NCBI GenBank assembly: GCA_965207475.1
Contig: OZ242278.1
Span: 264,320 to 328,319 of the forward strand
Length of the DNA stretch: 64,000 bases
From: Gammaproteobacteria bacterium
Lineage (GTDB): Bacteria; Pseudomonadota; Gammaproteobacteria; UBA4575
Direction: 5' to 3'
The notes beneath the pieces were generated by a model. The model was given only the letters and a program-made list of their open reading frames with translations, made no database searches and was not told the DNA's origin. Numbering within the stretch: the first letter of the stretch is position 1; the number at the start of each line of letters is the position of its first letter. Position numbers and translations under genes: made by a program. Shown in pieces: positions 2,166-20,302 of this stretch.

Positions 2166-2696
2166 TTCAACCAGATAAAATATATTCTTAAATATACTTA
2201 TCACCCTGTTAGTTGAATCGTATTGCATGCAAGCCTGTATTCCCTTTAACCTTCTTGCTGGTCCGTTCTGTTGTTTTATTTAATTTAACATAATATACAT
2301 TATACGCAATCATAGATTAGCCAAGAACCCAGACCCAGGCGACCTCACGAATCCATTTAGTCAACAGGCTCTCTCCTGTCTAAATAAAAAAATGTGATTT
2401 ACAGGATCAGCAGCGCTGTTCAGCTGTTTCTGCTTCCAAAGATAATGGAGCATGTCTGTAACCTCTCAGTTCACGCACAGTGCCTCGCATTATCGTTCCC
2501 ACACATATTCTGACCTGTTTGCGGGATACACTGTTTTGACCAAATGACTGATGCAGAAATTGCACAGAGCACGCCTTTTAATATTCCAGTGCCATAGCAC
2601 TAAGCAATATACGCATTCAAATATTTTATTTCCCAAACTAATAAAATATATTAGAATATAATTATATTGTTAATTACATTTAATGGGGATCCTACA

Positions 2697-3284
2697 ATGA
2701 ACTTATCAAAACTTGCCTATCCGATTATCGCTGGGCTTTTAGTGCTTCTGATAACACCTGCTTTCGGTGACCTGGCCAAAACTGGCGATACGGCTCAAAA
2801 CCAGTCAGCTGATTGCACGGTACATCCTGTTTTCACTGATCCTGAAGCAATGGCTGCTGCAATGACTAATCCGGTCAAATTCAATGAATTGATGGTTGCG
2901 ATCAATCACCCAGCCACTACTCAAGCACTTATGAACTGCTCTATTGATCCAAAGCAATGGGAGGCCTGGATGATGAGTTTCAGCGACCCTGCCAAGTTGA
3001 CGAATGCAATGGCACAGTTCATGAACCCCCAGACATATGTTAATTGGATGGCTGCTCCCATGAACCCGCAGTCATACCAGTTTATGTATGCGTATATGAA
3101 CCCGGCATTTTATATGCAGTGGATGACTGCTCTGATGAACCCGCAGTATTACCAGCCTCTGTATAAAACTATGGACTTCAACCAAGAAGGCACTGCGTGG
3201 ATGTTTAACCCAAGCACTTATCAAAATATGTTTAGCTCTTTCTATACCCCTTCTGTAGCAGAAGCCACAGTAGACAAAAACTAA
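2697..3284 (+). CDS. Secreted Met/Tyr-rich repeat protein ((M/F)NPxxY repeats)
   Basis: Start taken at ATG 2697 (GGGGA RBS upstream), giving a Sec-type signal peptide MNLSKLAYPIIAGLLVLLITPAFG. The mature part has at least five copies of a 12-13-aa repeat: FMNPQTY..., MNPQSY..., MNPAFY..., MNPQYY..., FNPSTY. Low-complexity but clearly periodic. Confidence 0.6.
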   Translation: MNLSKLAYPIIAGLLVLLITPAFGDLAKTGDTAQNQSADCTVHPVFTDPEAMAAAMTNPVKFNELMVAINHPATTQALMNCSIDPKQWEAWMMSFSDPAKLTNAMAQFMNPQTYVNWMAAPMNPQSYQFMYAYMNPAFYMQWMTALMNPQYYQPLYKTMDFNQEGTAWMFNPSTYQNMFSSFYTPSVAEATVDKN

Positions 3285-3852: not shown

Positions 3853-4166
3853 ATCAGAATTCGCTTGAATATGCAGCCAGATAATCAGTCATTTATCAGC
3901 CTCTATCCATTTCAGTTCCGTACCCGTTTAGCAAAACTTGTAACACAGGCACAGTGCCGCCGGATCTAAGAAATTCTCATACAAGTCATCTAAAATAGCC
4001 ACTATTATCTACTGGCCTGGATAGTTTGAACTAAGCAATCAATCAGTTAGTACGTTAGAATATTCGTGAACTTACATAGTAAACTATCGTCAAAAATTAC
4101 AGTATGGCCTGTATTGGCTAGATGACAGATGTGTGCATTTCACATCACCAATCTCAAGGGGACGCC

Positions 4167-4619
4167 ATGGACATTTCGAAAAGAAGATTCATTCAATACC
4201 AGCTTTGCATAGGCATATTTGCCTTAAGTTCAGGCGTAATACCACGAGCCTGGGCAGGATGGCCGTCAGCAGCGTTTGATGAAACTGAATACTTGCCCGC
4301 GTTAAAAGGGCTAATCGGCGATCAGGAACTGCTTGATGGACACGTAGAGCTGAATGTGCCAGATATCGCTGAAAATGGCGCGACGGTGCCTGTAAAGATT
4401 TCAACAGACCTGGATAACGTCGAATGGATAAGTATCATGGGTGACAAGAATCCAAGACCTTGGATTTCAAGGTTTTATTTTCACGGAAAATCCAAGCCCT
4501 ATGTCTCTACACGCATCAAATTGCGTGAGACCTCGCATGTAGTTGCCATCATCAAGGCAGAAGGCAAATTATACAGCACGAAAAGTGCAGTGAGAGTTAC
4601 CGCGGGCGGTTGTGTCTAA
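4167..4619 (+). CDS. soxY: SoxY-like sulfur carrier protein (Tat-secreted)
   Basis: Start taken at ATG 4167 (RBS aagggga) rather than ORF start 4122. Has a twin-arginine signal SKRRFIQYQLCIGIFALS, a SoxY-like fold length, and C-terminal ...RVTAGGCV with the carrier cysteine near the C-terminus. The canonical motif is GGCGG, so this one is atypical. It is immediately followed by soxZ. Confidence 0.65.
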   Translation: MDISKRRFIQYQLCIGIFALSSGVIPRAWAGWPSAAFDETEYLPALKGLIGDQELLDGHVELNVPDIAENGATVPVKISTDLDNVEWISIMGDKNPRPWISRFYFHGKSKPYVSTRIKLRETSHVVAIIKAEGKLYSTKSAVRVTAGGCV

Positions 4620-4643
4620 ATTTCAAATTTAAGGATTGAGAGA

Positions 4644-4958
4644 ATGTCTCAAAAAATGAAAATCAGAGCCAAAGTGAAAAACGGAATAACCACAGTTAAG
4701 GCCATACTTTATCACCCCATGGAATCTGGAAGCAGGAAAGATCCTGACACTGGAGAGCTAGTTCCGGCTCACTTTATCAAAAATGTCCAGGCAGCATTAA
4801 ATGGAGAAGTGATCATCTCTGCAGAATGGGGAACAGGGATTTCGAAAAATCCCTACTGGTCATTTGAATTTGAAGGGGGCAATCCCGGGGATATTGTGAC
4901 GATCAGCTGGACTGACAATCTTGGAGAATCAGGTACAGGAGAAGCGGAGATCAAGTAA
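4644..4958 (+). CDS. soxZ: SoxZ sulfur-compound chelating protein
   Basis: 104 aa with the SoxZ pattern K-x-LI/LY-H-P-MESG-x-RKD...NG...NPY..FEF. RBS AAGGA lies 8 nt upstream. Confidence 0.7.
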   Translation: MSQKMKIRAKVKNGITTVKAILYHPMESGSRKDPDTGELVPAHFIKNVQAALNGEVIISAEWGTGISKNPYWSFEFEGGNPGDIVTISWTDNLGESGTGEAEIK

Positions 4959-4979: not shown

Positions 4980-6125
4980 TTAGGTTGCCTGTTTCTTCCA
5001 CGGCCTGAGCAGTTCCAGCAATGACGTGGCCAATGCAGTAAAGAATCCTTTCTCATCCAAGATGTGGTACTGAACTTTCATTGTAAGCGCACTGCCAAAA
5101 ATAATTGAACCCAGGGCAAGAATTGACCCCATCGCCAATGTAGACATTCCAGTCACCCCCTGCCCTATCGTGCACCCGAATGAAAGCACGCCACCGAACC
5201 CCATCAAAACTGCGCCAATCAAATGGCTGGTCATCTCAGACTTGTTGCTGAATGTTTCAATCCTGAATGACCTTGATACAAGGGCATAGAGAAAGGAACC
5301 AGTAATCATCCCAAACGCAATCGCTATGCCAAAATTGATCTGAGCGCCTGTAAAAGTCATGAGATAGCTGATTGCATTTCCTGTTGGACCGATAAAGGCC
5401 ATGCCCTGGGGCATGACCGGTTCAAAGTCATCCTGGCCTACATAGCCGGTTACATACCATGCCGCAACCACGCATACGCCGATTATGACCCCTGCAAGAA
5501 TATTGTCGAAACTTCTGCGGAATTCCTTGTGTATAAAGGCATAGGTTATGAAACCTCCAGCCAGTACTACACCGATGATTACCCTCAGCCAAGCTGTATC
5601 CTCGAGGTTCAGAAGCGATCCCAGGTAGCTGATCAGGCTTTGGTCGTTTATGCCCTGGTTCGTAAGATCAGCATTGACAGCATAAATCCAGTTCAAACGC
5701 ACGATCGCCAACAGGCCTCGCATGGTCATATAGGCGGTTATGCCCAGCACTATAATCACGACGAGTGCCTTTAAGTTTCCACCACCGAGTCGAATTAAAT
5801 TCCGTTGCCCACAGCCTGCCGCCAATGTCATGCCAATTCCAAATAGAATTCCTCCAAGGATATAGCTGAGGATGTAAAAATTAGGTGAGAGATAGATTGA
5901 CGCATTCAGGTCCACGAGTCCCTGGAAAAACAAGAACTGTGCCCCAAGTATTGCTACACCAATTGCCAGGAACCAGGCTCCTAAACGGCCTTTTGACCCC
6001 ATGTTGATCACGTCACTGATCGCACCCATTGAACAAAAGTGAGTTTTGTTTCCAATAAAGCCAAATACAGCGGCTATGATGAAGCCAAGTATTGCTACCA
6101 GATGAAGGTTAGAAAATTCTTCCAT
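4980..6125 (-). CDS. yeeE: YeeE/YedE family thiosulfate-uptake protein (TsuA-like)
   Basis: 381 aa polytopic membrane protein. It has the two sulfur-transport-domain signature cysteines in AAGCGQRN and SFGCTIGQG. RBS aggaacgaggtg lies upstream of ATG 6125. Confidence 0.75.
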   Translation of the reverse strand: MEEFSNLHLVAILGFIIAAVFGFIGNKTHFCSMGAISDVINMGSKGRLGAWFLAIGVAILGAQFLFFQGLVDLNASIYLSPNFYILSYILGGILFGIGMTLAAGCGQRNLIRLGGGNLKALVVIIVLGITAYMTMRGLLAIVRLNWIYAVNADLTNQGINDQSLISYLGSLLNLEDTAWLRVIIGVVLAGGFITYAFIHKEFRRSFDNILAGVIIGVCVVAAWYVTGYVGQDDFEPVMPQGMAFIGPTGNAISYLMTFTGAQINFGIAIAFGMITGSFLYALVSRSFRIETFSNKSEMTSHLIGAVLMGFGGVLSFGCTIGQGVTGMSTLAMGSILALGSIIFGSALTMKVQYHILDEKGFFTALATSLLELLRPWKKQAT

Positions 6126-6440: not shown

Positions 6441-7121
6441 TTACTCAGTCTTGGACCCAGAATTAGGAAGGAAATTTTTCATCATGTCTGTCCATTGATC
6501 GTACCACTGCTTATGCTGTTCAGTATCCATTTGCGGGCTTCCGGGAGACTGCGGTGATTGTCCTCCATAGCTAGGCATTGGGGGCATCATACCCATAGGG
6601 TTCATCATCGGATTTCCCATCATGGGATTCATCATGTTCATGTACATTGCAGGATTCATCATGGATCCCATCATCGGTCCCATCATCGGTCCCATCATTC
6701 CCATCATCGGATACATCATGTTCATGTACATCGCAGGATTCATCATCCCGCCAAAGGAACCCATATAGGTATTTGGATTCATTATGGAAGTCATCGCGTG
6801 AGGATTCATCATTGCCTTGTAGGGTTGCCACATCATATCCAGCATAGGCCCGAAGCTGGCATGGTACTCAGCTATATCCTGGGGTTCATGACATAGCGCG
6901 CAAGCATCTAGAGACGATGAATTTTGAGGGTTCATCATGATCGCCATCATCTGCATCCATACGTTGGGGTCCATGGAGTGTTGCATTGCCTTCGACGTGC
7001 CTAATGGAGCAGGATCTGCTTGCGGGGTTGGTGTTTCCTCAGCATGTAAGCCGATGACGCAAGCAGTAAGTAGGCAACTAGCAATCAATACCCATCGAAG
7101 CAGTCTATTATTAAATAACAT
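6441..7121 (-). CDS. Secreted, extremely methionine-rich protein with a CxxCH haem-binding motif
   Basis: Signal peptide MLFNNRLLRWVLIASCLLTAC. The mature part is roughly one-quarter Met, with at least seven MMNP repeats and MGPMMGPMMG tracts. A single CALCH (CxxCH) motif is followed by a Met-rich block. RBS AGAAGGGAA lies upstream of ATG 7121. Confidence 0.6.
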   Translation of the reverse strand: MLFNNRLLRWVLIASCLLTACVIGLHAEETPTPQADPAPLGTSKAMQHSMDPNVWMQMMAIMMNPQNSSSLDACALCHEPQDIAEYHASFGPMLDMMWQPYKAMMNPHAMTSIMNPNTYMGSFGGMMNPAMYMNMMYPMMGMMGPMMGPMMGSMMNPAMYMNMMNPMMGNPMMNPMGMMPPMPSYGGQSPQSPGSPQMDTEQHKQWYDQWTDMMKNFLPNSGSKTE

Positions 7122-7160: not shown

Positions 7161-8258
7161 TCAAAACTCGCCTGTTGCAGCGCCTTCCATAATGTAAGTC
7201 ATTGCCTCGCGAATTCTGATCGCATCCTGACGCAAATCTTTAGCCAAATGCGAGTTCGGATTTTGAGCAAAATCAAGCCATTCGATACTCCAGTCCATGG
7301 TCATGACCCACAGCTTGCCCTCACCATCCTCAATCAATGAAATCTGGCACGGCAGGAATATAACAAATTCTGGAATTTCGTCTAAGATTTTTCGAGCAAC
7401 TGCCGCATCACAGAAACGAAACATCTCGACCTTGGCAGAAGGTTTTTCCGTGACTGCTTCAATTTCTTTCCACAGTGGGCTCGAACCAACAAACTTGAAG
7501 TTCAGCTCATTCGCACGGAGCTTCATGGCCTCCACAGCATCATCCCAGGAGACGTCTTCCTGAACAGGCATCTTGTCAGTCATGATACTGATCATGTCAC
7601 GCATGGAAAGCGGACTGAAGGCCATCGCAGTTTGAAAGGCATTCTTCTTGGCTTCACGGGACACTCCGGGAGATACCTTGTTTTTCGGCCAGTTTTGATA
7701 ATTCTGGGTCGGGAAAAACGGGATTCTTACAGCCGGTAAATGCTCTGGAACTTTGCCTCCCCTGTAAGCAGAACCCGCATGGCCGAACATACCAAACAAA
7801 AGATGTGGATTCATCGAGCGCATCATCATGTCCATGGCCCATGGTTGCGTCATCATGTCCACAGGAAAGTTATACATGGTCCTCATCATTCCCATCATCG
7901 GATACATCATGCCCATGTAGGCTGCAGGGTTTAGCATAGTGAAGGGGTTAAAGAAGTTCGCAAATGAACCATGTGCCCCCGTCCATGGGTTATGCACCGA
8001 TTGAGAAGGTGCCTGCTTTGCTATTCCTTCATTAATACTGGCCCGTGAGTCTTCGGTGGACTCTGGGTTAGTATCTGTATTTGTTTTCCCGCTTGGTTCT
8101 TGACTGTCATCCATCTTTACAACAGTCTCGGTCTGGACAGAATTCTCTGCGTTGTTTTGACTAGAAAGTTCTGAACTTATTGAGGTCGTGGGCAAGACTA
8201 GTATCCCAGCCATCAAGACAACGAGCGTCCGAGTCACTTCAGCATACTTCATAAGCAT
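7161..8258 (-). CDS. Secreted protein: Met-rich repeat region fused to a C-terminal DUF302-like domain
   Basis: N-terminal signal peptide, then an S/T/N/E-rich linker. The Met-rich block (MLNPAAYMGMMYPMMGMMRTMY...MDMMMRSMNP) is homologous to the two other Met-rich proteins. The C-terminal roughly 130 aa (VSWDDAVEAMKLRANELNF...PCQISLIEDGEGKLWVM...) resembles DUF302 (PF03625). That domain call is from memory, not from a search. Confidence 0.5.
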   Translation of the reverse strand: MLMKYAEVTRTLVVLMAGILVLPTTSISSELSSQNNAENSVQTETVVKMDDSQEPSGKTNTDTNPESTEDSRASINEGIAKQAPSQSVHNPWTGAHGSFANFFNPFTMLNPAAYMGMMYPMMGMMRTMYNFPVDMMTQPWAMDMMMRSMNPHLLFGMFGHAGSAYRGGKVPEHLPAVRIPFFPTQNYQNWPKNKVSPGVSREAKKNAFQTAMAFSPLSMRDMISIMTDKMPVQEDVSWDDAVEAMKLRANELNFKFVGSSPLWKEIEAVTEKPSAKVEMFRFCDAAVARKILDEIPEFVIFLPCQISLIEDGEGKLWVMTMDWSIEWLDFAQNPNSHLAKDLRQDAIRIREAMTYIMEGAATGEF

Positions 8259-8335: not shown

Positions 8336-8896
8336 TTGCAATCAGACAACTCACAGAGGTATCTTTTGAAACTTTTACTTGCCGCCGCCCTGCTGATCAT
8401 CGGTGCAGTCTCCATGGCTGTATCCTCTGTCACATTAGAGGCTACCAACAGCACGGACTTCTGCACATCGTGCCATTCCATGCAGTGGGTACAGGAAGAA
8501 TGGATGGAAAGCATCCACTATACAAATATCTCGGGTGTACGTGCCGGCTGTTCTGACTGCCATGTTCCGCACAGCCTGGGGCCAAAGCTGTATGCCAAGA
8601 TTCGCGCCGCAAAGGATGTATGGCACGAGATCCTGGGCACCATAGATGATGAAGAAAAATTTGAAAAGCACCGGTGGCAGATGGCAAATGCCGTATGGAC
8701 ACGAATGAAAGCAAATGACTCGCGTGAGTGTCAGTCATGCCACACCATTGCTGCCATGGATCTCAAGGAACAGGACCGCTCAGCACGCAAAAAACACAAA
8801 AATGCAGAGACGCGCGGAAAAACCTGCATTGATTGCCATACTGGTGTGGCACATACACTGCCCAGAAAACCTGCAGAGGAAATTGCACTGAACTAG
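8336..8896 (+). CDS. NapC/NirT/CymA-family membrane-anchored tetrahaem cytochrome c
   Basis: Four CxxCH motifs (CTSCH, CSDCH, CQSCH, CIDCH) after one N-terminal TM helix. Length and spacing are typical of NapC/NirT quinol dehydrogenases. An alternative TTG start at 8364 follows the GAGGT RBS. Confidence 0.8.
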   Translation: MQSDNSQRYLLKLLLAAALLIIGAVSMAVSSVTLEATNSTDFCTSCHSMQWVQEEWMESIHYTNISGVRAGCSDCHVPHSLGPKLYAKIRAAKDVWHEILGTIDDEEKFEKHRWQMANAVWTRMKANDSRECQSCHTIAAMDLKEQDRSARKKHKNAETRGKTCIDCHTGVAHTLPRKPAEEIALN

Positions 8897-9033
8897 GCAA
8901 GGCGCGGGTCTAAAAGCGGCCATTCAACTGTGCTAGTATTCGTGTGCGGGGATAAAAATCACTGCAGTTGTGCTTAGATTCTAGCCGTTTGCAGAATAAC
9001 GAAGCCATGAATATCCAGTACAGGAGGATAAGA

Positions 9034-9699
9034 ATGCTGTTAACAATTGTCCGCCATACATTTTTGTTATGTGTGCTCAGTCTGCTGACTTTCCATACCG
9101 TATCAGCATCCGACCTTGCAAGCCCGGCTATGCTATCTGACACATGTCTTGGCTGCCATGGTCCAGCAGGTATCAGCGAGGGGCCAGCGACCCCGACCAT
9201 TTCGGGAATGTCAGAAATTTACATAATTGGCGCAATGTTGGCCTACAAGTACGATAACGACGAGGATAAGGTTGAGGAAGTGATTGAATCGGATCCTGAC
9301 TTCGAGGACGTCGAATTCTTTGCCCGAACGTCCACTGTCATGGACCGAATTGCCAAAGGTTATTCCGAAGCAGAAATCAAGGCTATCGCAAAGTACTTTG
9401 CAGCATTGCCTTTTAAGGCCAGTGTGCAGGAGGTCAACCCTGAACTGGCCAAGGCCGGTGCAGAAATCCACGAACATCACTGTGAAAAATGCCACGAGGA
9501 TGGCGGAAGGTCTGCGGATGATGATGCAGGAGTACTGGCGGGACAGTGGATTCCTTACCTTGAATATACAATGGCTGATTTTCAAAGCGGCGATCGGGCC
9601 ATGCCTAAAAAAATGAGGAAGCAGATGGAAGAAGCCCATGACGTGCATGGAGAGGAATCAATTGCCAAACTCATCCAGTTTTATGCAGATCAGGAATAA
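9034..9699 (+). CDS. fccA: Flavocytochrome c sulfide dehydrogenase, dihaem cytochrome subunit
   Basis: I started it at ATG 9034 (AGGAGG at 9022-9027) rather than ORF start 8968. It has a signal peptide and two CxxCH motifs (CLGCH, CEKCH), and is immediately followed by the flavoprotein subunit with a slight overlap. Confidence 0.75.
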
Positions 9700-9730
9700 A
9701 GCGCCAGTCAGGATTGCAGGAGGAACTAAC

Positions 9731-11014
9731 ATGCCAAATCTAAATAGAAGGAAATTTTTACAGAGTACAGGTAGCGCATTTGCACTGGGCTCCACCGTAC
9801 TCGGTTTTCCGCATATAGCGGGGGCTGCAAAAAAACGTGTCGTCGTAATTGGCGGTGGTGTAGGCGGATCGATCGCTGCCAAATATATTGCCAAAGGAGA
9901 TTCTTCCATAGAGGTAACCATTGTTGAAGCAAAACCCAGTCACCATACATGCTTCATGAGTAATGAGGTAATTGGAGGTGATCGAGATATTTCAACAATC
10001 GAGTTTGGCTACGACAAGTTTGCGAGCCACGGAATAAAAGTAGTTCAGGACAAGGCTACTGCGGTTGACCCCGTTGCCCACAAGGTTACCACTGCAGGTG
10101 GTGTAACGCTTGAGTATGACCGTCTGGTAATGTCACCGGGCATTGCGCTCCAGTGGGAAACGATTGAAGGCTACGATGAGGCTGCTGCTGAAATCATGCC
10201 CCATGCCTGGCTAGCAGGACAGCAGACTGCACTGCTGAGAAAACAGCTGGAATCGATGGATGACGGTGGACTGGTGGTCATTGCCCCTCCAGGCAATCCG
10301 TTCCGTTGCCCGCCGGGCCCTTATGAGCGCGCCGCACAGATTGCTCATCATCTCAAGCATCACAAACCGAAATCCAAGGTTTTGATACTTGATGCCAAAG
10401 ACAAGTTCTCCAAACAGGGATTGTTCATGCAGGGTTACAAGAAAGTCTACGGGGACATGATCGAGTGGGTTCCAGGGGCGGATACAGGTGGAGGCGTCAC
10501 CTCGGTAGATCCCAAGGCGATGAAAGTCAGCACTGATTTTGATGAACATAAAGTTGCTGTAGCCAATATCATCCCACCGCAAAAAGCGGCACAAATTGCC
10601 CATGATGCAGATCTGACGGATGATTCTGGCTGGTGCCCTGTAGACTTGGGGACATTCGAGTCCAAGCGGCACAAGGACATACACGTCATCGGCGATGCCG
10701 GGATCATTACGGGTATGCCCAAGTCCGGTTTTGCTGCGGGCACCGAGGCGAAAGTGGTTGCTTCAGCAGTCGTCAGCATGCTTCAGGAAAAGGAGTCCGG
10801 CGTTAATTCCTATGCCAATGCATGCTACAGCATCATCGCACCAGACTACGGAATTTCTGTGGTTGCTGTGTACAAGCTTGCCGCAGACCGTTCGAAAATC
10901 GAAAAGATGAGTGGCGGGCTTACTCCTGCTGATGCAACTCCGGAAGCGCTTAAACGTGAAGTGCAATATGCCTACAGCTGGTTCAAAAATATGACGGCTG
11001 AAATGTTTGGTTAA
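9731..11014 (+). CDS. fccB: Flavocytochrome c sulfide dehydrogenase, FAD-binding subunit
   Basis: Start ATG 9731 (AGGAGG RBS) gives a Tat signal [16 protein letters not shown]. It has a Rossmann dinucleotide-binding motif [16 protein letters not shown], and its length and pattern match the FccB/SoxF flavoprotein family. Confidence 0.85.
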
Positions 11015-11091: not shown

Positions 11092-11610
11092 TTATTCGAT
11101 AAGCGGCACCTTGTAGACAAGGGTCCCGATCGCCCCATCGTTGCCCTTGAAGTTTGCATGGCACATCACACACCTCTCGAGAACGACCGGGACGGCCGTG
11201 GCCTTACGCAGATAGCGCATGCCTTCAATGGTGACTACCTCTTCATGCGTAGACTCGCCACCTAGCAGCTTTTCTTTAGCCTGCTCTTCGAATTCATCTT
11301 TCGGTCGATTCATCTCAGGATGGATGAGAACATCCGTCAGGCCTACAAGGCGCACCTCGTGATAGCCGTTGTTACTCATGGTGTCAAACAACGCTTTCGC
11401 AGCGCTTGCCCCCGAAAACTTCGACGGATCAGTGACGTATTTGTCCGTGATCAGCACTATCGCTGTCTTGTACAGGGTGTCAAGCATCTCTACATGCTGG
11501 CGCGTTCTTGTGACTTCAGGATCTTCATCTGCCATGGAGGCTTCACTGAACAAAGCCAGCGGCATGCAGACAGGAACTAGCCAGGCAAGAAGGCTTTTTC
11601 GCTTTCTCAT
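11092..11610 (-). CDS. Periplasmic c-type haem (CxxCH) protein, DUF3365-like sensor-domain fold
   Basis: 172 aa with a signal peptide and a single C-terminal CVMCH motif. Its size and C-terminal haem position resemble DUF3365 (Tll0287-like) proteins. That domain assignment is from memory. Confidence 0.45.
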   Translation of the reverse strand: MRKRKSLLAWLVPVCMPLALFSEASMADEDPEVTRTRQHVEMLDTLYKTAIVLITDKYVTDPSKFSGASAAKALFDTMSNNGYHEVRLVGLTDVLIHPEMNRPKDEFEEQAKEKLLGGESTHEEVVTIEGMRYLRKATAVPVVLERCVMCHANFKGNDGAIGTLVYKVPLIE

Positions 11611-12296: not shown

Positions 12297-12923
12297 CTAG
12301 ACAAACAGGCAGATATTCGCGTCCTTGGCAGCTGAAAGAAAGGAGGCTGCACCGACCCACTCTGATACTTCATCGATAAACTCGGCCTTGTCATACCCGA
12401 ATAAGTCCGCTGTCATCTCACAGCCAATAATTTTTACTTCAGCTTCGATGGATAAGGCACGCAACTCCTGGATACTTGCGACACCTTTCTCCTTGATAGT
12501 CCGCTCCATCATCAAGGTGGCAAATTTTTCAAATCCCGGGAGGTTACTGCTCAGTGCATTGGGTATATTCCATTCCACACTTTTGAACCAGTCGGGGCCA
12601 AACGGCATTTTCATTGGCATCGCAGGATTGCCCAGCGGCGAAACAGCAAGGTTCAAATCTTTCTTCAGAAGGTTCAGTCCGTAAAAAGTAAAGAAGCAGG
12701 ATACATCCCAGCCCAGAGCTGCAGCAGTCGACGCAAGAATAAAGGGAGGGTACGCCATGTCCAATGTGCCCTTGGTGGCAATCAGTGACAACTGGGGGGT
12801 CCTGGCTTCTGCACGCTCGCGCAGCCTTTGCTCCAGCCTTTCGTCGAACCAATTGTTCAGTGCTTCCTGGTCAAGCTGTGACGGGACCTGGGATTCGGAT
12901 TCGGGTGTACTTTCTTGCTGCAT
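12297..12923 (-). CDS. DsrE/DsrF-like family protein (sulfur-relay-like), with an N-terminal Q/E-rich extension
   Basis: The core LSLIATKGTLDMAYPPFILASTAAALGWDVSCFFTFYG is characteristic of the DsrE/DsrF-like (COG2210-type) family, with a candidate active cysteine in SCFF. Confidence 0.6.
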   Translation of the reverse strand: MQQESTPESESQVPSQLDQEALNNWFDERLEQRLRERAEARTPQLSLIATKGTLDMAYPPFILASTAAALGWDVSCFFTFYGLNLLKKDLNLAVSPLGNPAMPMKMPFGPDWFKSVEWNIPNALSSNLPGFEKFATLMMERTIKEKGVASIQELRALSIEAEVKIIGCEMTADLFGYDKAEFIDEVSEWVGAASFLSAAKDANICLFV

Positions 12924-13710: not shown

Positions 13711-14670
13711 ATGCCTATCCGTGATTACCAGTCGCTCATGCTTCCAGTCCTCAAGGCACTCGCCGACGGGCTCGAAGCCCCGCTGTCCAAAATACGAGCC
13801 CATGTTGCTGTTTCGGAAAAGCTGACTGAGCAAGAACTCTCCCAACGGGTGCCAAGTGGGCAGCAGACGGTCTTGAACAATCGCGTCAGTTGGGCGCTGC
13901 ATCGCTTGGAAAAGGCGGAACTGGTCGGGCGGTCGCGCCGCGGAGTATATCAACTGACAACTGAGGGGGACCGGTTGCTGAAGGAGGAACCGGAGAAAGT
14001 AAATAACGTTTTTCTTCGTACTCATTATTCAGCGTATGCAGAGTGGTTGCGTTTGTATGAACAGCGGTATAGGCAGCGACAGAAACGTGAGGGCACATCG
14101 CAGACTGCGCCAGCACAGCTTCGAGTGCCTGATTCCGAAGAGACGCCCGAGGAGCAACTGGGACGTGCCGCTCGGGAACTGCGCATTGCGCTGGAGTCTG
14201 AAATACTGAGTCTTGTCCGCAGTGCCCCTCCCGAATTCCTTGAGCACGTAATCGTCGATCTGCTGGTGTCGATGGGCTATGGTGGCGGTGATGCGGCCAA
14301 GAGCCGTGTGACAGGACGTTCGGGAGATGGCGGTATCGACGGCACAATCCGGGAAGACGCACTCGGTCTGGACGAGGTCTATGTTCAGGCCAAGAAATAC
14401 GCCGAAGGCAGCAACGTTGGCGAAGGTGACTTGCGCAACTTTGCAGGTGCCATTGACGCAGCAGGCACATCCAAGGGCGTATTCGTTACCACAGCTGGAT
14501 TCACGCGATCTGCGCGAGATTACATCGCACGCAGTCCAAAGCGAATCATTCTAATTGATGGCGAAGAATTGGCCCGACTTATGGTCCAGCACGATGTAGG
14601 CGTGCGGACACGCGACCGCTACGAGATCAAGCGGGTTGACGAAGACTATTTTGATCAGGAAGAGCTGTAG
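13711..14670 (+). CDS. mrr: Mrr-family type IV restriction endonuclease (Mrr_N winged-helix + Mrr_cat)
   Basis: Has an N-terminal Mrr_N-like domain and a C-terminal catalytic core (...GDGGIDGTIREDALGLDEVYVQAKKY...) with the PD-(D/E)XK-type D...(E/Q)xK arrangement typical of Mrr_cat. GGAG RBS lies upstream. Confidence 0.7.
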   Translation: MPIRDYQSLMLPVLKALADGLEAPLSKIRAHVAVSEKLTEQELSQRVPSGQQTVLNNRVSWALHRLEKAELVGRSRRGVYQLTTEGDRLLKEEPEKVNNVFLRTHYSAYAEWLRLYEQRYRQRQKREGTSQTAPAQLRVPDSEETPEEQLGRAARELRIALESEILSLVRSAPPEFLEHVIVDLLVSMGYGGGDAAKSRVTGRSGDGGIDGTIREDALGLDEVYVQAKKYAEGSNVGEGDLRNFAGAIDAAGTSKGVFVTTAGFTRSARDYIARSPKRIILIDGEELARLMVQHDVGVRTRDRYEIKRVDEDYFDQEEL

Positions 14671-14673
14671 TTC

Positions 14674-17478
14674 ATGCGCCTTTCGTGGAACGAGGTTCGA
14701 GTTCGTGCTGCAACTTTTGCCAAGGAGTGGCAGGATGCATTTTATGAGAAAGGCGAAGCACAAAGTTTCTACAACGATTTTTTTGAGATCTTTGGAGTTC
14801 GGCGACGAAGCGTTGCCCGCTACGAAGAGCATGTAAAGAAACTGGACGACACTTCCGGCTTCATTGACCTGTTCTGGCCGGGGGTTCTCATTGTCGAGCA
14901 GAAGAGTGCAGGACGTGACCTCACCAAGGCAGGCGACCAAGCTAGAGAATACTTTGATGCCCTGAAAGAAAGTGATCGGCCACAGTATATCTTGGTAAGC
15001 GACTTCCAGACCTTCGAACTCCATGATCTCGATGAGCGAAAGCAAGTAAATTTCAAACTCGCAGAGCTGCCCGCGCATGTCGAGTCGTTTGGCTTCATCC
15101 TCGGCGTACAGCGCCGCACCTTCCGCGATCAGGATCCGGCCAACATCAAGGCAGCGGAACTGGTCGGGCGGTTGCATGATGCCCTGGCCGCAACAGGCTA
15201 CCAAGGCCACTACCTGGAACGCTTTCTGGTGCGAATCGTCTTCTGCCTGTTTGCCGATGACACGGGCATTTTCGAGCCACGTGACATTTTCCTCGATTTC
15301 ATCCAGGCACGCACGAGCGAGGATGGGGCTGATCTCGGGCCGTGGCTGGCCCAATTGTTCCAGGTGATGGATACAACGGAAGATGCCCGCACGGCAACGC
15401 TGGATGAAGACCTTGCGCGGTTTCCCTATGTCAACGGTGACTTGTTCCATGGGCGACTAGACATTCCATCTTTTGACTCAGCCATGCGCAAATTGCTGCT
15501 GGATGCTTGCCGCTTTGACTGGTCGAATATTTCACCTGCAATCTTTGGGGCGTTGTTCCAGTCAGTAATGAATCCGGAGGAACGCCGTGCCCAGGGTGCG
15601 CACTATACGACCGAGAAGAACATCCTCAAGGTGATTGAGCCACTGTTTATGGACGACCTGCGCACCGAGTTCAAACGGCTAAAGTCTCGCAAGGACAGTC
15701 GGCGCCAAGCTGAGCTTCAACGATTTCAGAAAAAACTCGGCAGTTTGACGTTTTTTGACCCGGCCTGTGGTTGTGGCAACTTCCTTATCATCGCCTATCG
15801 GGAATTGCGTGAACTTGAGATTGAGGTCCTGAAGGAAATTCACAAAAAGTTCCTAGTTCGCATGAGCCGTCTGAAGGGCGGTTCCAGCCTTCCCTCAGAT
15901 CAACTTTCCTGCATCGATGTTAATCAGTTCTATGGGATTGAGTTAGGTGAATTCCCATCCCGAATCGCAGAAACCTCGCTGTGGATGATGGACCACATCA
16001 TGAACAACCGGCTAAGCCTGGAGTTTGGTCAGTCCTATGCGCGTATCCCGCTTGCAAAGTCGCCGCATATTGTCCACGGCGATGCGCTTGAAACGGACTG
16101 GTCCGAGTTGTTACCGGCGAAGGATTGCTCCTTCGTCTTCGGCAATCCGCCATTCAAAGGTGCAAAGTTCCAGACAGCGAACCAGCGCGCGCAGGTACGT
16201 AGGATCGCGGCACTCGGCAGGAGTGGCGGCACGCTCGATTATGTCTGTGCATGGTTCATCAAGGCAGGTGAGTATGTACAGGACAGCGATGCCCGAATCG
16301 GCTTCGTCGCGACCAACTCGATCACAGCAGGCGAGCAAGTAGCTCAACTCTGGCCGATCCTATTCGAGCGCTGCAAGCTGGAGATCGCATTCGCGCATCG
16401 CACATTCGCATGGGGATCGGATGCGCGTGGTAAGGCCCATGTGCATGTGGTGATTCTCGGTCTCGATCGAAGGGAGGCAGTGCAACCTAAGAAGCGCCTG
16501 TTCAGCTATCCCGACATCAACGGTGAGCCAGAGGAGACCCGCCATGTGGCGCTTTCTCCGTATCTGTTCGATGCCAGCGGGCTATCGGACCCGCATCTGG
16601 TGGTGCGGGAGGAGAGCGCGCCGATCAACGGAATGGGAAGATTGATAATAGGCTCCAAGCCAATCGACGGCGGAAATTACATTTTCGACGAAGCGGAACG
16701 CACTGCGTTTCTTGAAGCAGGGCCCGAGGCTGAGCAGTGGCTTCGACCGTTCATTGGAGCACGTGAGTATTTGCACGGTGGCGAACGGTGGATTCTTGCG
16801 CTACATGACACGCCGCCCGACGTGTTGGGGCGGTTGCCGCATGTACGAGAACGTATTGCAGCTGTACGGACATATCGTGAGGAAAGTAAAAGCAAGCCGA
16901 CTCAGAAACTTGCAAAAACACCAACGCTCTATCATGTGAATATTATTCCTGATGCACCGTTTCTTGTTATCCCCGAAGTCAGTTCGGAACGTCGTGAGTA
17001 CGCGCCTATCGGGTGGCTGGAGCCACCCGTAATCCCAAGCAATCTAGTCCGCGTTTTGGAAAATGCGACCTTGTCAGATTTTGCGTTGCTGACCTCAGCC
17101 ATGCACATGGCGTGGCTACGTCATATCGGTGGACGGCTGGAGAGCCGCTACCGCTATTCCATCGGTCTCGTCTACAACACCTTTCCGCTGCCGCCCAAGA
17201 ACTTGGACCTGTCAAAGCTGGACCCACTAGCACAAGCCGTGCTTGATGCCCGTGCAACTCATCCGAATGCCACGCTTGCAGATCTCTATGATCCTGACTC
17301 GATGCCTCCTAATCTCCGTAAGGCACACTACGCACTTGACCGTGCGGTGGACCAGCTCTATCGACATAAGGGGTTTGCTTCCGAACGCGAACGGGTCGAG
17401 CACCTGTTCATGCTATATGAGAAAATACAAGCGCCGCTAAAACCTATAACTAGGAAAAGAAGACCCCGAAAGCGATGA
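14674..17478 (+). CDS. MmeI-family type IIL restriction-modification enzyme (N-terminal PD-(D/E)XK endonuclease fused to gamma-class N6-adenine DNA methyltransferase and TRD)
   Basis: 934 aa. The N-terminal FIDLFWPGVLIVEQK is a D...ExK nuclease motif. Methyltransferase motif I is FFDPACGCGNFLI and motif IV is GNPPF. The domain order and the length (MmeI is about 919 aa) fit the MmeI family. It starts 3 nt after the mrr stop. Confidence 0.6.
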   Translation: MRLSWNEVRVRAATFAKEWQDAFYEKGEAQSFYNDFFEIFGVRRRSVARYEEHVKKLDDTSGFIDLFWPGVLIVEQKSAGRDLTKAGDQAREYFDALKESDRPQYILVSDFQTFELHDLDERKQVNFKLAELPAHVESFGFILGVQRRTFRDQDPANIKAAELVGRLHDALAATGYQGHYLERFLVRIVFCLFADDTGIFEPRDIFLDFIQARTSEDGADLGPWLAQLFQVMDTTEDARTATLDEDLARFPYVNGDLFHGRLDIPSFDSAMRKLLLDACRFDWSNISPAIFGALFQSVMNPEERRAQGAHYTTEKNILKVIEPLFMDDLRTEFKRLKSRKDSRRQAELQRFQKKLGSLTFFDPACGCGNFLIIAYRELRELEIEVLKEIHKKFLVRMSRLKGGSSLPSDQLSCIDVNQFYGIELGEFPSRIAETSLWMMDHIMNNRLSLEFGQSYARIPLAKSPHIVHGDALETDWSELLPAKDCSFVFGNPPFKGAKFQTANQRAQVRRIAALGRSGGTLDYVCAWFIKAGEYVQDSDARIGFVATNSITAGEQVAQLWPILFERCKLEIAFAHRTFAWGSDARGKAHVHVVILGLDRREAVQPKKRLFSYPDINGEPEETRHVALSPYLFDASGLSDPHLVVREESAPINGMGRLIIGSKPIDGGNYIFDEAERTAFLEAGPEAEQWLRPFIGAREYLHGGERWILALHDTPPDVLGRLPHVRERIAAVRTYREESKSKPTQKLAKTPTLYHVNIIPDAPFLVIPEVSSERREYAPIGWLEPPVIPSNLVRVLENATLSDFALLTSAMHMAWLRHIGGRLESRYRYSIGLVYNTFPLPPKNLDLSKLDPLAQAVLDARATHPNATLADLYDPDSMPPNLRKAHYALDRAVDQLYRHKGFASERERVEHLFMLYEKIQAPLKPITRKRRPRKR

Positions 17479-18299
17479 ATGAGTTTCTGTTCACGTCAAT
17501 CGTCCAACGCCAAAGGTGCTCAACTGACAGAGTAGACCCACGTCCAAATCTGCACAATGCTGTTCATATGAAACACGCACCGCATGGTCTTGCACGAGCT
17601 GTGCCGGTAGGCGCTAGTGCGGGCGAACAGAGAGCTACCGCCATGTTTGTGCTCCTGTTGCTAATTCTCGCTATGACTACAGCAGCACAAGCGAGCAAAC
17701 GTCTGCAGACCGTGACGTGTGGTCTGCCACAGCAGGACAACTCAATTCCCGATCTCTTTCCTACGGGGCTACACCGACCCTTTGCCGGACGATTCACTTA
17801 GCGGGCACATGGAGGTGAAGACCTTTAACCGCCTCCATCCCGAGAGTGGTATCAGCACCGAAATGTGGATGCTCTCACGCAATGTTGGCTGGTGGAGGCT
17901 GAAAATGATCCGGGTGCACCCGGATGATTTGTCAAAGCTTTCTGCCAAATCATCGACTCTCCTTTCCTGTCACGATCCGTTGTCATACGTGGAGGGGACA
18001 CAGACGAGGAAGAGTTAGTGACCAGGCAGATCTTGGCCCTGCTGCCGGACGTCTCCCAACTGCGGTGCTTCCCGCAATCGGAAAGATAGAAAATCACTCG
18101 TGAAGGTCCATTGACGGTGCATCACAAGCGGTTGGAACTGCGTTGCCTATTACCCGCCATTGCCGCAACGACAAATCTGCTGAACTTTATCTCCACAGGT
18201 CTCGGTGTTGTACGGCAACAAGACCCATTTGCGAGCGAAGAATTTAGTAGAGCATTTGGGTTAGCTAATCTGAGAATACAGTGATTTGAGTCCTTTCCC

Positions 18300-18800
18300 C
18301 TAATAACCAAAATGATCTTGGTCTAAGGAAAATTCAAAACATGGCCCTTTGTAAACGGCACCTGTAGTGCTTATACACCTAGGATGAAGCCGTAACTTTC
18401 TAGATTTTTGAACAGTTGTTGACCTTGGCCGGTGAAGAGAATTCAACAGACTGGAAAGTTTCTCAGCAGGCACGTACCAAACCTTTACTTCACCAATTTC
18501 CAAAACCTCAGGAAGAGAAGGATGCGTACGCCCAAGTGGTGCTTCAGGAGCAACCGAGGCCCCATAATCACCACAGAACATAAGCCGAATATCAGCAATA
18601 GATACTGTACTTTCACCCTCATTTATAGCAGTAATTTTTACTGCTGGTTCTGTGAGCCCTAATTCTTTAGAAACAGGGCCTGGTTCAATCATGGTCTCAA
18701 TACGAACTGTTTTCCGTGCAACACGCTTCCGTATCTTGCTGAGAAATGCAGAAAGTCTCAGAACTAAGTCTATATTGCTGAGTGTCTCTAGAAATCCCAT
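18300..18800 (-). CDS. Hypothetical protein (166 aa) in a low-GC pocket of the island
   Basis: It is the only sizeable ORF in 17.5-20.0 kb. Its GC (about 42%) is well below the surrounding island (about 55-62%), and I see no recognisable motif. The coding call is uncertain. Confidence 0.35.
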   Translation of the reverse strand: MGFLETLSNIDLVLRLSAFLSKIRKRVARKTVRIETMIEPGPVSKELGLTEPAVKITAINEGESTVSIADIRLMFCGDYGASVAPEAPLGRTHPSLPEVLEIGEVKVWYVPAEKLSSLLNSLHRPRSTTVQKSRKLRLHPRCISTTGAVYKGPCFEFSLDQDHFGY

Positions 18801-19204
18801 TCTTTGTGAGTATTCCCTTTCGCAATTAAATTAAGTGGTTCAGCTGCGTCACTACAAATTGTATTACAAACGATCACCTTGCGTTTAGGGGTTTTTTGGT
18901 TTTGACCACCCTATTCCACAAGTTGTAAGACCTTTATTTTTCAGTCTGTGGCCATCAAATTTGAAATCAATTAATCGAACGCTTTAGGTTACTGCTGTCA
19001 CAGATGTAGCTGGCCCAGTTACTCGAGCGCACTACCAACCGTTTGCACTACAGCCGGAGTTATCCGAGTGATATGCGGAAGCAGGCATTGCAAGCCTACT
19101 ACCGCAAGATCGGTTGGCTCATTATGGTAATGCGATCTCAGAGAAGTTTGTCAGCAACTGCATGCTAGGAGCAACTACGAGACGAGCTGGATTCTTATAC
19201 ACCC

Positions 19205-19262
19205 GGCCGTGTCACTACCCGGTGAAGCGAAGCAAAACGCGGTAGTGACGCGGCCGCTTTTG
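19205..19262 (+). terminator. Long perfect-stem hairpin followed by a T-run (terminator-like or RNA structural element)
   Basis: cggccgtgtcactacc (19205-19220) pairs with ggtagtgacgcggccg (19241-19256) as a 16-bp stem with one mismatch, around a 20-nt loop, followed by ctttt. No protein-coding gene lies immediately upstream on this strand. Confidence 0.35.
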
Positions 19263-20053: not shown

Positions 20054-20302
20054 ATGAACTATCGAATTGTACGGCTGAAGGAGGTCCAGCAAATGACCGG
20101 ACTCTCCCGATCCACGATTTACGCACTCATTGCCCAAGGCAATTTCCCCAAACAGATCCAGCTCACCGAAAGCGGCCGATCCGTGGGCTGGCATGAACAG
20201 GCGGTAATCCGATGGATCGAGACCCGGCAGCAGGTGGAATGCCCGACCGGCCGCTACTCAGTCGTTGGCGGCCCTAGAGAAGAGCGAGATCACCTCGCCT
20301 GA
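20054..20302 (+). CDS. alpA: AlpA-family phage/island transcriptional regulator (excisionase-like HTH)
   Basis: Start ATG 20054 with GAGGAA RBS. LKEVQQMTGLSRSTIYALIAQGNFPKQIQL is the canonical AlpA/MerR-like HTH. The 3' end overlaps the integrase 3' end convergently. Confidence 0.7.
   Translation: MNYRIVRLKEVQQMTGLSRSTIYALIAQGNFPKQIQLTESGRSVGWHEQAVIRWIETRQQVECPTGRYSVVGGPREERDHLA

Follow-up and report, generated by a model that had tools for sequence, protein, structure and literature searches.

The gene at positions 6441 to 7121 (minus strand) of the window, by which we mean the whole 64-kb stretch of contig OZ242278.1 from a Gammaproteobacteria bacterium (GCA_965207475.1), probably encodes a Sec-exported periplasmic monohaem c-type cytochrome. 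Judging from its sequence, its gene neighbourhood and its predicted structure, we think it likely that this protein belongs to an undescribed family and works with DUF302 and YeeE proteins in the handling of oxidised sulfur.

The open reading frame list and its translation give a complete coding sequence of 226 aa, with a stop codon at 6441-6443 and a GAAGGG Shine-Dalgarno-like element 7-9 nt 5' of the ATG. Residues 1-27 (MLFNNRLLRWVLIASCLLTACVIGLHA, followed by EE; 7041..7121, minus strand) form a putative signal peptide, called by reading the sequence and the alignments. Its n-h-c organisation and its conserved junction (GLHA, then EE) are the export signal expected of a c-type cytochrome. 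The tetrapeptide LTAC at aa 18-21 resembles a lipobox, but its Cys is not conserved in relatives and the A-EE junction is, and we rejected the lipoprotein reading. Met accounts for 47/226 residues (20.8%) of the whole protein and 46/199 (23.1%) of the mature protein, and charged residues for 9% of the whole. An initial sequence-only reading had described a secreted protein of about 25% Met; secretion and Met richness hold, and the figure should be 21-23%. A His-rich ORF (6558-6896, plus strand) and an Asp-rich ORF (6571-6831, minus strand) are by-products of an ATG-rich repeat within the gene, and were rejected because the conserved modules that flank this repeat occur in the Met frame only.

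As the sequence-only reading had claimed, the translation contains a single CxxCH, the putative haem-attachment motif CALCH at aa 74-78 (6888..6902, minus strand). When the mature sequence was shuffled 200,000 times, a CxxCH arose in only 0.0275% of the shuffles (P = 2.75e-4). Absence of the motif from homologues had been set beforehand as an observation that would refute the haem assignment. We found instead that both Cys and the His are all kept in 173 of the 176 non-redundant segments spanning the motif columns, the three deviating relatives having GxxCH, CxxCR and CxxSH, and that this conservation reaches down to about 30% identity. Among the 120 matches listed in the first homologue search, 94 have the motif; the other 26 lack the whole haem module described below, and none carries a mutated motif. 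By these sequence criteria, selection has kept the CxxCH in this secreted protein, and chance is excluded as its origin. The annotated ORFs of the 64-kb window include no Ccm or Ccs genes. Three further CxxCH proteins with significant matches to cytochrome families are encoded in the same 10-kb cluster (a NapC-type protein with four motifs, an FccA with two and a Tll0287-like protein with one), and from these we infer, indirectly, that the organism has a maturation system and matures haem c.

The rest of the protein had been described as otherwise made of low-complexity repeats, which proved to be incorrect. Alignments and AlphaFold2 models define a conserved 75-aa helical haem module at aa 42-116 (6774..6998, minus strand), and a conserved C-terminal helix module lies at aa 197-219 (QMDTEQHKQWYDQWTDMMKNFLP; 6465..6533, minus strand), where the model places a helix at 200-217. 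Structure prediction had been proposed as a way to look for a folded module, and the region around the motif is indeed modelled at pLDDT >90: residues 51-100 score 91-92 in the full-length model and 93-94 in a model of the domain. Within the haem module P52, C74, C77, H78 and G91 are invariant in the alignments, and S49, M50, D51, M59, M62, M63, P65, A84, Y86 and M93 are near-invariant. Position 85 is R in most relatives and E in the window protein. The C-terminal helix, with the family consensus MMDPKQYEQWFxQWTEMMKNFxPQ, is common to the cytochrome candidate and its haem-less paralogues.

After export, a cytochrome c maturation system would join haem to Cys74 and Cys77, with His78 as the proximal ligand. 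The sixth ligand would be a Met, for which the candidates are M59, M62 and M63 on the helix before the motif, M93, M96 and M97 in a GPMxxMM turn after it, and M198 just before the C-terminal helix. Conserved Met residues are found 11-15 residues before the first Cys and 15-19 residues after the His, and in short members of the family a near-invariant Met stands 38 residues beyond the His, just ahead of the C-terminal helix. In class I cytochromes c the ligand Met lies about 40-60 residues beyond the His and a C-terminal helix follows it. Because some distant members are missing the upstream helix and others M93, conservation leaves the choice at these three groups.

We next consider how the protein relates to known families. 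At E<=1e-3 the cytochrome candidate has 133 homologues. Those with names are proteins from metagenome-assembled genomes (MAGs) of uncultured Gammaproteobacteria, all labelled "hypothetical protein" save two with the automatic JGI labels "cytochrome c553" and "cytochrome c peroxidase"; we looked for cultured carriers among these named matches and found only MAGs. When the window protein and nine relatives were scanned against Pfam and NCBIfam, nothing came out above threshold, and a PDB sequence search with a full-length profile gave no match. A fold search with the predicted structure yielded no significant PDB fold match and no match to any cytochrome fold, the class I fold included. Likewise, the class I cytochrome c profiles (PF00034 and PF13442) did not match the window protein in Pfam, and the best class I score among relatives was 18 bits against a cut-off of 27. 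Comparisons with hhalign, for which SoxY, SoxZ and SirB served as negative controls, aligned 9-12 columns of the FccA class I domains and of NapC, covering the motif only, with a probability of 12% over 12 columns for the FccA domains. All of the weak or sub-threshold similarities are to c-type cytochromes (SoxX, SorU, DUF1924/DHC, Cytochrome_CBB3) and are centred on the motif. The sequence-only reading named no described cytochrome class with this combination of features, which agrees with our finding that the protein falls within no curated family and no solved structure. We found no description of the family in literature on Met-rich proteins, cytochromes, sulfur oxidation, sulfur globules, YeeE and DUF302, of which our coverage was incomplete, so that this does not prove absence.

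The closest known likenesses are SoxX and the sulfite dehydrogenase subunit SorU, which are also secreted, have a single CxxCH, belong to sulfur-oxidation clusters and resemble the short family members in having a mature core of about 100 residues. They are the recurrent best sub-threshold NCBIfam matches (E 0.008-0.4), but with scores of 11-17 bits against curated cut-offs of 61-100, and the candidate matches no class I profile or fold. Its family also differs from them in its Met-rich repeat expansion, in its distinct MDPxxYxxWF C-terminal helix and in its neighbour, which is DUF302 rather than SoxA or SorT. A second likeness is to the tetrahaem cytochrome c of photosynthetic reaction centres, in which a Met-carrying helix is likewise followed by a turn, CxxCH and then G-x-D-x-A; in the reaction-centre cytochrome of Blastochloris viridis, a Met on the helix preceding CxxCH is the sixth ligand. 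When searched against the PDB, the haem-module profile found weak matches only, to these cytochromes: the best was 8z82_C (whole-sequence E = 1.1e-4), and many more had E values of 0.002-0.2, but no single segment reached significance by itself (i-E >= 2.9). The candidate differs from them in having one haem motif rather than four, no fold match and a different biology.

Between the haem module and the C-terminal helix lies a Met-rich, uncharged repeat (aa 117-196; 6534..6773, minus strand) built of MMNP, MMGP and NPAMYMNMM units, in which 29/80 residues (36%) are Met and 0% are charged. MxM and MxxM motifs abound in the protein. The segment is a Met/Pro/Asn/Gly/Tyr repeat, with the aromatic Tyr residues spaced by N, P, G or S, and is predicted to be disordered (pLDDT <50). 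At the DNA level it contains a 12-nt tandem repeat (4.8 copies at 6657-6710) and a 49-nt repeat of 94% identity with a spacing of 84 nt. Nearly all differences among relatives at >=88% identity are indels of whole units in this segment. Short relatives of 120-175 aa lack the repeat, so that it is best described as an expansion; in them the C-terminal helix comes after the haem core and only two or three short MNPxxW/Y units. Sequence comparison places the short and long forms in one family. The disordered segment would part the compact haem module from the C-terminal helix at a distance that shifts with unit indels, and could act as a flexible tether or a self-associating element that keeps the proteins of the cluster together in the periplasm, a role suggested by the fact that the DUF302 partner and the haem-less paralogues bear the same kind of Met-rich segment. 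There is a mechanistic analogy in yeast Pbp1/ataxin-2, whose uncharged Met/Tyr low-complexity region self-associates and is switched by Met oxidation. The analogy extends to the Met-rich repeat only, as the Pbp1 domain is eukaryotic, cytosolic and unrelated in sequence.

The gene had been placed between yeeE and a Met-rich DUF302 fusion, and the annotation bears this out. Ending 39 nt upstream, a gene at 7161..8258 (minus strand) encodes a secreted DUF302 protein (PF03625, E = 2.2e-9) that is extended at its N-terminus by a disordered, Met-rich stretch and that, at 37.5 bits, passes the gathering score of 23; a promoter-like site lies upstream of it at 8326-8297. Downstream of the candidate, after a gap of 315 nt, is a YeeE/YedE-family sulfur transporter gene (4980..6125, minus strand; PF04143, E = 1.3e-62). 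In 37 of the 40 loci a DUF302 gene directly precedes the cytochrome gene, on the same strand and with gaps of about 35-135 nt, and the YeeE gene is conserved beside this pair across related loci. The DUF302 core, which is >=63% identical in more than 120 clusters, has two Cys at identical positions (FCD...LPC) in 40/40 sequences; its extension contains 6-33% Met in 39 of these and 1% in the remaining one, from locus L042. All 120 DUF302 homologues among the matches listed carry PF03625. A PDB search with the DUF302 partner gave no match, and hhalign related its Met-rich extension to the cytochrome repeat with a probability of 45%. DUF302 genes have been noticed in sox clusters for a decade without being assigned a function. 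They were noted independently within sox clusters that lack soxCD (PMC5037610, PMC5248467).

The wider sulfur-gene context is real and strongly conserved, both in the 40 loci and, in other gene orders, in the distant members at L042, L044 and L050. A stand-alone SoxYZ pair (4122..4958, plus strand; soxY 4122-4619, PF13501; soxZ 4644-4958, PF08770) is conserved in the neighbourhood of related loci. A haem-less secreted "MNPxxY" repeat protein (2667..3284, plus strand), with the same repeat unit as the Met-rich segment of the cytochrome, is conserved in at least 14 loci and has analogous proteins in L042 and L044. Its translation probably begins at the ATG near 2697. Transcribed divergently from the DUF302-cytochrome pair is a block at 8336..11014 that encodes a NapC/NirT-type tetrahaem cytochrome (8336-8896, plus strand; Pfam; four CxxCH), an FccA-like dihaem cytochrome (8968-9699, plus strand; Pfam; two CxxCH) and an FccB-like flavoprotein (9638-11014, plus strand), the last identified from its ORF translation, from its recurrence across the loci and from the FCSD Pfam families recorded for its equivalents at L042 and L048. 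The start given for the FccB-like ORF is probably too far upstream. About 22-25 of the 40 loci have this block; in about 15 the DUF302-cytochrome pair occurs without it. Two members stand apart: one at L048, among other cytochromes with SoxYZ and FccB and no DUF302, and one at L049, among housekeeping genes and adjoining a thioredoxin-like gene.

Taken together with the haem module, this neighbourhood suggests that a conserved module of the two-cysteine DUF302 protein, the Met-rich cytochrome, the haem-less Met-rich proteins and a YeeE-type transporter has the cytochrome as its redox component and acts beside SoxYZ and flavocytochrome c sulfide dehydrogenase. The most likely role of the cytochrome would be to accept electrons from, or donate them to, a step at the DUF302 cysteines that involves a thiol or sulfane sulfur, with the oxidised sulfur going to import or storage. 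YeeE-like SoxT proteins are known to import sulfur for oxidation (PMC11582611).

We then asked whether other explanations account for the same observations. An unlikely one, which is partly compatible with the explanation we prefer, is that the Met-rich secreted proteins of the cluster self-associate into a thioether-rich matrix around periplasmic zero-valent sulfur, with the haem connecting this deposit to the electron-transport chain. The proteins concerned (the haem-less MNPxxY and MMNP proteins, the DUF302 extension and the cytochrome itself) would then play the part that sulfur globule proteins play in purple sulfur bacteria. Each cluster encodes several secreted low-complexity repeat proteins, and the repeat is uncharged, predicted to be disordered, spaced with Tyr among N, P, G and S, and rapidly changing in repeat number, all of which would suit such a matrix. 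SgpA-D of Allochromatium vinosum are likewise small, secreted and repetitive proteins of sulfur oxidisers without SoxCD, but differ from the candidate in composition and are not known to be Met-rich or to contain haem. The known globule envelope proteins are small, secreted and very hydrophobic (PMC10386293), which we count in favour of a matrix. Also in its favour is the combination of a truncated Sox system (SoxYZ, with no SoxCD nearby) and FccAB, which in symbiotic sulfur oxidisers accompanies periplasmic sulfur globules (PMC11237559). Against a matrix, sulfur storage by the carrier organisms is an assumption of this reading, and that Met thioethers have an affinity for S8 or polysulfide is conjecture. 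Moreover, short family members that are nearly devoid of the repeat keep the same neighbours, so that the core function needs no matrix. A broader version, which we offer as speculation and also consider unlikely, is that the Met-rich cytochrome, the two-cysteine DUF302 protein and the haem-less repeat proteins form an unrecognised periplasmic assembly: a self-associating, thioether-rich phase that would hold zero-valent sulfur or polysulfide from SoxYZ and FccAB, be wired by haem and feed the YeeE-type importer.

Somewhat more doubtful is the possibility that the protein serves flavocytochrome c sulfide dehydrogenase as its dedicated soluble acceptor and relays electrons from FccAB either to a terminal oxidase or to the quinone-linked cytochrome of the NapC type, with DUF302 and YeeE incidental. 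The divergently adjacent NapC-FccA-FccB block would fit this, as would the L048 member, which sits among c-type cytochromes beside SoxYZ and FccB without DUF302. However, it is DUF302 (37/40), and not FccAB, that lies closest and recurs most widely, the loci without NapC-FccAB retain the pair, and distant members retain DUF302 and YeeE. FccAB also has a dihaem subunit of its own.

It is also improbable that the CxxCH is a redox-active or metal-binding CxxC, with the His kept for another reason, instead of a haem site. The failure of the predicted fold to match any cytochrome, the alignment of class I and NapC-type profiles over the motif alone, and the thioredoxin-like gene after the L049 member are consistent with such a CxxC. 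Yet the His is conserved as strictly as both Cys, the protein would be exported unfolded by Sec into a compartment where the haem-attachment machinery uses CxxCH, and every weak similarity is to a haem c protein.

A function in periplasmic Cu(I) binding or copper handling, in which MxM and MxxM motifs would bind Cu(I) and the CxxCH would be a Cu(I)-oxidising haem or part of a metal site, is very improbable. The candidate does share a periplasmic location and clustered MxM/MxxM with Met-rich copper proteins (the Met-rich insert of CueO, PcoE/SilE, CopM/CopK, CusF), but has no homology to them and has a conserved haem module. His and Asp usually accompany Met in copper sites, and the repeat has neither. 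The annotated ORFs of the 64-kb window include no cop, cus or pco gene, multicopper oxidase or P-type ATPase, and none turned up in the gene lists of the related loci that we inspected. All conserved neighbours are genes of sulfur oxidation, and Pfam gave no match to a copper family. A sacrificial Met sink, scavenging periplasmic oxidants and re-reduced by methionine sulfoxide reductase in the manner of the secreted, 20% Met protein MrpX of Azospira suillum, is hardly credible: the candidate resembles MrpX in being secreted and about 21% Met, but MrpX has 44% charged residues, no haem motif and a yedYZ-mrpX operon under the oxidant-sensing sigma factor SigF (PMC4436054), whereas the candidate has 9% charged residues overall and 0% in the repeat, no yedY/msrP-like gene among the annotated window ORFs or the loci inspected, and an invariant CxxCH module that a Met sink leaves unexplained. 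Altogether, the copper, oxidant-sink, matrix and non-haem CxxC explanations are weaker than that of a c-type cytochrome.

How periplasmic sulfane sulfur from SoxYZ or flavocytochrome c is stored, or handed over to the cytoplasm through YeeE/SoxT-type proteins, is poorly understood. Our analysis places a tightly conserved, unannotated gene set, comprising DUF302, the Met-rich cytochrome, haem-less Met-rich proteins and YeeE, at this step. The set occurs in many uncultured marine sulfur-oxidising Gammaproteobacteria, whose source habitats are marine sediments and communities associated with invertebrates, and offers a candidate redox component open to expression and assay. With it comes a candidate c-type cytochrome family that current profile and fold libraries do not recognise, and the 36%-Met low-complexity insert between the haem core and the C-terminal helix gives this family unusual value for studying haem ligation and the role of Met-rich disordered regions in bacteria. 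If the periplasmic assembly considered above were to prove true, it would be a novel type of apparatus for storing sulfur and handing it over, and the cytochrome class at its centre would have a new fold.

The gene at 6441-7121 (-) that encodes the Met-rich cytochrome candidate is an intact open reading frame of 226 codons, with a GAAGGG element 7-9 nt 5' of the ATG. As read from the sequence, its product begins with a typical signal sequence, MLFNNRLLRWVLIASCLLTACVIGLHA, followed by EE. The single CxxCH noticed in the sequence-only reading is indeed the only one: the translation gives CALCH at residues 74-78 (nt 6888-6902, minus strand), and a CxxCH arose by chance in 0.0275% of shuffles of the mature sequence. 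Methionine accounts for 20.8% of the whole protein (47/226), 23.1% of the mature protein (46/199), and 36% of the repeat at residues 117-196 (29/80), in which there are no charged residues.

Conservation of the motif among homologues had been proposed as a check on the haem assignment. Our first search with this protein returned 133 relatives, and 94 of the 120 that were listed contain exactly one CxxCH at a comparable position, at identities down to ~30%. The other 26 lack the motif and are shorter; because the entire haem module is absent from them while the Met-rich repeats and the C-terminal module are kept, we regard them as paralogues rather than degenerate copies. For an unbiased count, we ran a haem-module profile against all collected proteins and locus ORFs and considered the non-redundant segments covering the motif columns. 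Both Cys and the His are kept in 173 segments, against three deviants (GxxCH, CxxCR, and CxxSH), so the refuting outcome named beforehand, homologues without the motif, did not emerge.

Family alignments and two AlphaFold2 runs (full-length and domain-only) divide the protein into four parts: a signal peptide, a haem module, a repeat segment, and a C-terminal helix. The conserved, helical haem module spans 75 residues (42-116), of which P52, C74, C77, H78, and G91 are invariant in the alignments and S49, M50, D51, M59, M62, M63, P65, A84, Y86, and M93 nearly so. A folded module around the motif, about which the earlier reading had asked, is thus predicted: block-mean pLDDT is 91-92 over residues 51-100 of the full-length model, and the domain-only model has a mean of 84.6. 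The repeat segment, built of units such as MMNP, MMGP, and NPAMYMNMM, has pLDDT below 50. It is followed by the conserved helix at residues 197-219, with the family consensus MMDPKQYEQWFxQWTEMMKNFxPQ.

The family is a small one, since a profile of the haem module alone retrieved only 62 clusters at E <= 1e-3 from 1.84 billion representative proteins. Some members are of a short type (120-175 aa), in which the CxxCH is followed directly by D-x-ARY...GPM..MMNP.NWMNP.AY..MM.PMMDP.TY..WYNAWM.KYG, so that the C-terminal helix of the long type comes after the haem core with merely two or three MNPxxW/Y units between. A short-type profile retrieves the long type at E values from 1e-24 to 1e-10. Comparison of the two types points to an inserted expansion: the Met-rich region of this protein is an expanded short MNPxxY-type unit, placed within a small cytochrome after the haem core and ahead of the C-terminal helix. 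The description of a motif embedded in a disordered Met matrix is thus too simple.

The Met-rich repeat evolves by insertion and deletion of units. In its DNA, a 12-nt unit is tandemly repeated 4.8 times (6657-6710), and a 49-nt sequence recurs with 94% identity at 84 nt spacing. Relatives sharing 88% identity or more with the protein are 191 to 253 aa long. Residues 1-49 are also missing from the two shortest, P0174 and P0175, and the full-length members differ almost only by blocks of repeat units. Within the single 90%-identity cluster of the protein (P0173, P0002, and P0174-P0186), lengths run from 135 to 244 aa and the aligned members (191-244 aa) differ by whole units, a strain-level length polymorphism of the Met-rich segment. 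The other frames of the repeat hold a His-rich ORF (6558-6896, +) and an Asp-rich ORF (6571-6831, -), and two database relatives, P0179 and P0121, end in exactly that Asp/His-rich frame (...DEPHGYDEP...). These ends result from frameshifts within the repeat, whether through assembly error or genuine slippage.

How does this protein relate to known cytochromes? It has no match in Pfam and only sub-threshold matches in NCBIfam, to SorU and SoxX; nine relatives gave recurrent sub-threshold matches to SoxX, SorU, DUF1924 (a dihaem cytochrome), Cytochrome_CBB3, and Cytochrom_C. When the haem-module profile was compared with PDB sequences, the top matches were tetrahaem cytochrome subunits of reaction centres (8z82_C, E = 1.1e-4; others 0.002 to 0.2). 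These alignments span helix-turn-CxxCH-G-x-D-x-A segments, none of them significant singly, and the resemblance is confined to the local layout of one haem-binding segment. With hhalign, the probability was 12% over 12 columns for class I dihaem FccA (aligned from related loci) and 25% over 9 columns for NapC, against 0.1% for negative controls. From the Pfam/NCBIfam, PDB-sequence, and hhalign results we conclude that the protein is a candidate c-type cytochrome that fits none of the class I, NapC/NirT, and reaction-centre families. Sequence conservation leaves three groups of Met as candidate sixth ligands: M59, M62, and M63, 11-15 residues before Cys74 in a reaction-centre-like position, on a helix that is absent from some distant members; M93, M96, and M97, 15-19 residues past His78; and M198, immediately ahead of the C-terminal helix. 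The corresponding Met of the short type lies 38 residues past the His, a class I-like spacing. Because the CxxCH is strictly conserved, the protein is Sec-exported, the folded module is confidently predicted, and all weak similarities are to haem-c proteins, covalent haem is very probable, and with it the assignment to a new family of periplasmic monohaem cytochromes c.

The gene lies, as the sequence-only reading stated, between a YeeE-family gene (4980-6125, -) and a Met-rich DUF302 fusion (7161-8258, -). Scanning one genome for each bacterial and archaeal species, we obtained 40 loci, every one from metagenome-assembled genomes of uncultured Gammaproteobacteria or 'Thiotrichales', several of them closed (1.7-2.8 Mb). 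The DUF302 gene, the most constant neighbour, ends about 35-135 nt 5' of the cytochrome gene on the same strand in 37 loci, the other three being contig-edge or paralogue matches. YeeE follows in most loci, SoxYZ is nearby, and about 22-25 of the 40 have NapC-FccA-FccB upstream in divergent orientation. Distant members retain the association in a different order: SoxX-like cytochrome, SoxY, SoxZ, SoxA, SoxB-like (5'-nucleotidase family), regulator, Met-rich 223-aa protein, cytochrome, DUF302, and YeeE in locus L042; YeeE, Met-rich 300-aa protein, and DUF302, with the cytochrome divergent, in L044; and SoxYZ, a 93-aa ORF, DUF302, and cytochrome in L050. Two loci depart from this pattern. One, L048, has the gene amid other cytochromes, adjoining SoxYZ and FccB, without DUF302; in the other, L049 (7001-8540), a short member, P0191, is directly upstream of a 351-aa thioredoxin-like (Thioredoxin_2) protein. 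P0191 is outside any sulfur cluster, amid the housekeeping genes recA, recX, and alaS. Synteny ties the function of the cytochrome to sulfur oxidation.

Four haem-c proteins are encoded by the window's sulfur cluster, which spans 2.6-13 kb, namely a NapC-type protein (four motifs), FccA (two), a Tll0287-like protein (one), and the Met-rich cytochrome, from which it follows that the organism matures cytochromes c. The gene for the NapC/NirT-type membrane tetrahaem cytochrome directly precedes fccA-fccB (8336-11014, +), an order that is conserved in about 22 loci and suggests how sulfide electrons might pass from flavocytochrome c to the quinone pool; the listed fccB ORF shares 62 nt with fccA, and translation of fccB therefore probably begins further downstream. 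The cluster is edged by the secreted Tll0287-like protein, with a single CVMCH near its C-terminus (11092-11610, -), and a DsrE2-like (DrsE_2) protein (12297-12923, -). The remainder of the window holds housekeeping genes and a restriction-modification and integrase island. This region (13711-21484), adjoining gltX, encodes an Mrr-type restriction endonuclease, an MmeI-type restriction-modification enzyme, two Pfam-less ORFs, and a phage-type integrase, and is probably an integrated island interrupting the neighbourhood.

In 40/40 sequences the DUF302 partner contains two Cys and no more, spaced 21 residues apart (FCD...LPC). Core identity is 63% or higher over 176 residues in >120 clusters, each of them from uncultured Gammaproteobacteria; for a domain of unknown function, such conservation looks like the constraint on an enzyme. 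Methionine makes up 6-33% of the partner's N-terminal extension in 39 of 40 sequences and 1% in L042; in the copy encoded in the window, the extension is long, acidic and disordered, then Met-rich. Many loci also encode one to three haem-less Met-rich proteins, most ending in the cytochrome's C-terminal helix. One in the window (2667-3284, +) is a secreted protein of ~nine-residue MNPxxYxxW/M units (MNPQTYVNWM, MNPQSYQFMY, MNPAFYMQWM, and others) whose position is conserved in at least 14 related loci. Repeat proteins like it are encoded in L042 (7263-7934) and L044 (1569-2210 and 3779-4681), the last having the 'MDPxxYxxWF' motif of the C-terminal helix three or four times in tandem.

DUF302 genes have been described between soxA and soxB in organisms without soxCD (PMC5037610, PMC5248467), and YeeE-like SoxT proteins in Hyphomicrobium import sulfur for cytoplasmic oxidation (PMC11582611). 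From the observed parts list and its co-occurrence we infer an electron-transfer partner and a role for the repeats: the cytochrome would be the electron carrier of a DUF302/YeeE module, exchanging electrons with a thiol or sulfane step at both DUF302 cysteines, and the Met-rich repeats common to the cytochrome, the DUF302 extension, and the haem-less paralogues would be flexible, mutually associating tethers. We favour this explanation as a whole, with some reserve; the specific DUF302 redox step, taken alone, is a tentative suggestion.

Alternatively, the repeats could form a matrix for sulfur deposits. Multiple secreted, uncharged, Tyr-spaced repeat proteins and a truncated Sox context would fit, but short family members without the repeat have the same neighbours, and we think this unlikely. 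Similarly doubtful is the idea that a thioether-rich protein phase in the periplasm, wired by haem, stores sulfur and hands it over. That the cytochrome is a plain electron acceptor of FccAB is slightly less probable still: NapC-FccAB is a frequent neighbour and the L048 context agrees, yet the link is looser than that to DUF302. A non-haem CxxC site is improbable, as the His is conserved as strictly as both Cys. Copper binding, very improbable, and an MrpX-type oxidant sink, the least credible, fit the Met richness only: the expected gene context is absent for each, with no copper or msrPQ genes among the annotated ORFs of the 64-kb window, and MrpX is 44% charged (PMC4436054) versus 0% in this repeat.

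As a kind of protein, a c-type cytochrome is already known. Named relatives are all 'hypothetical protein', apart from two automatic JGI labels, and our literature search found no description of the Met-rich family. The family itself has not been described, nor have its predicted fold, for which there was no match, its 36%-Met expansion, and the conserved module that it forms with DUF302 and YeeE.
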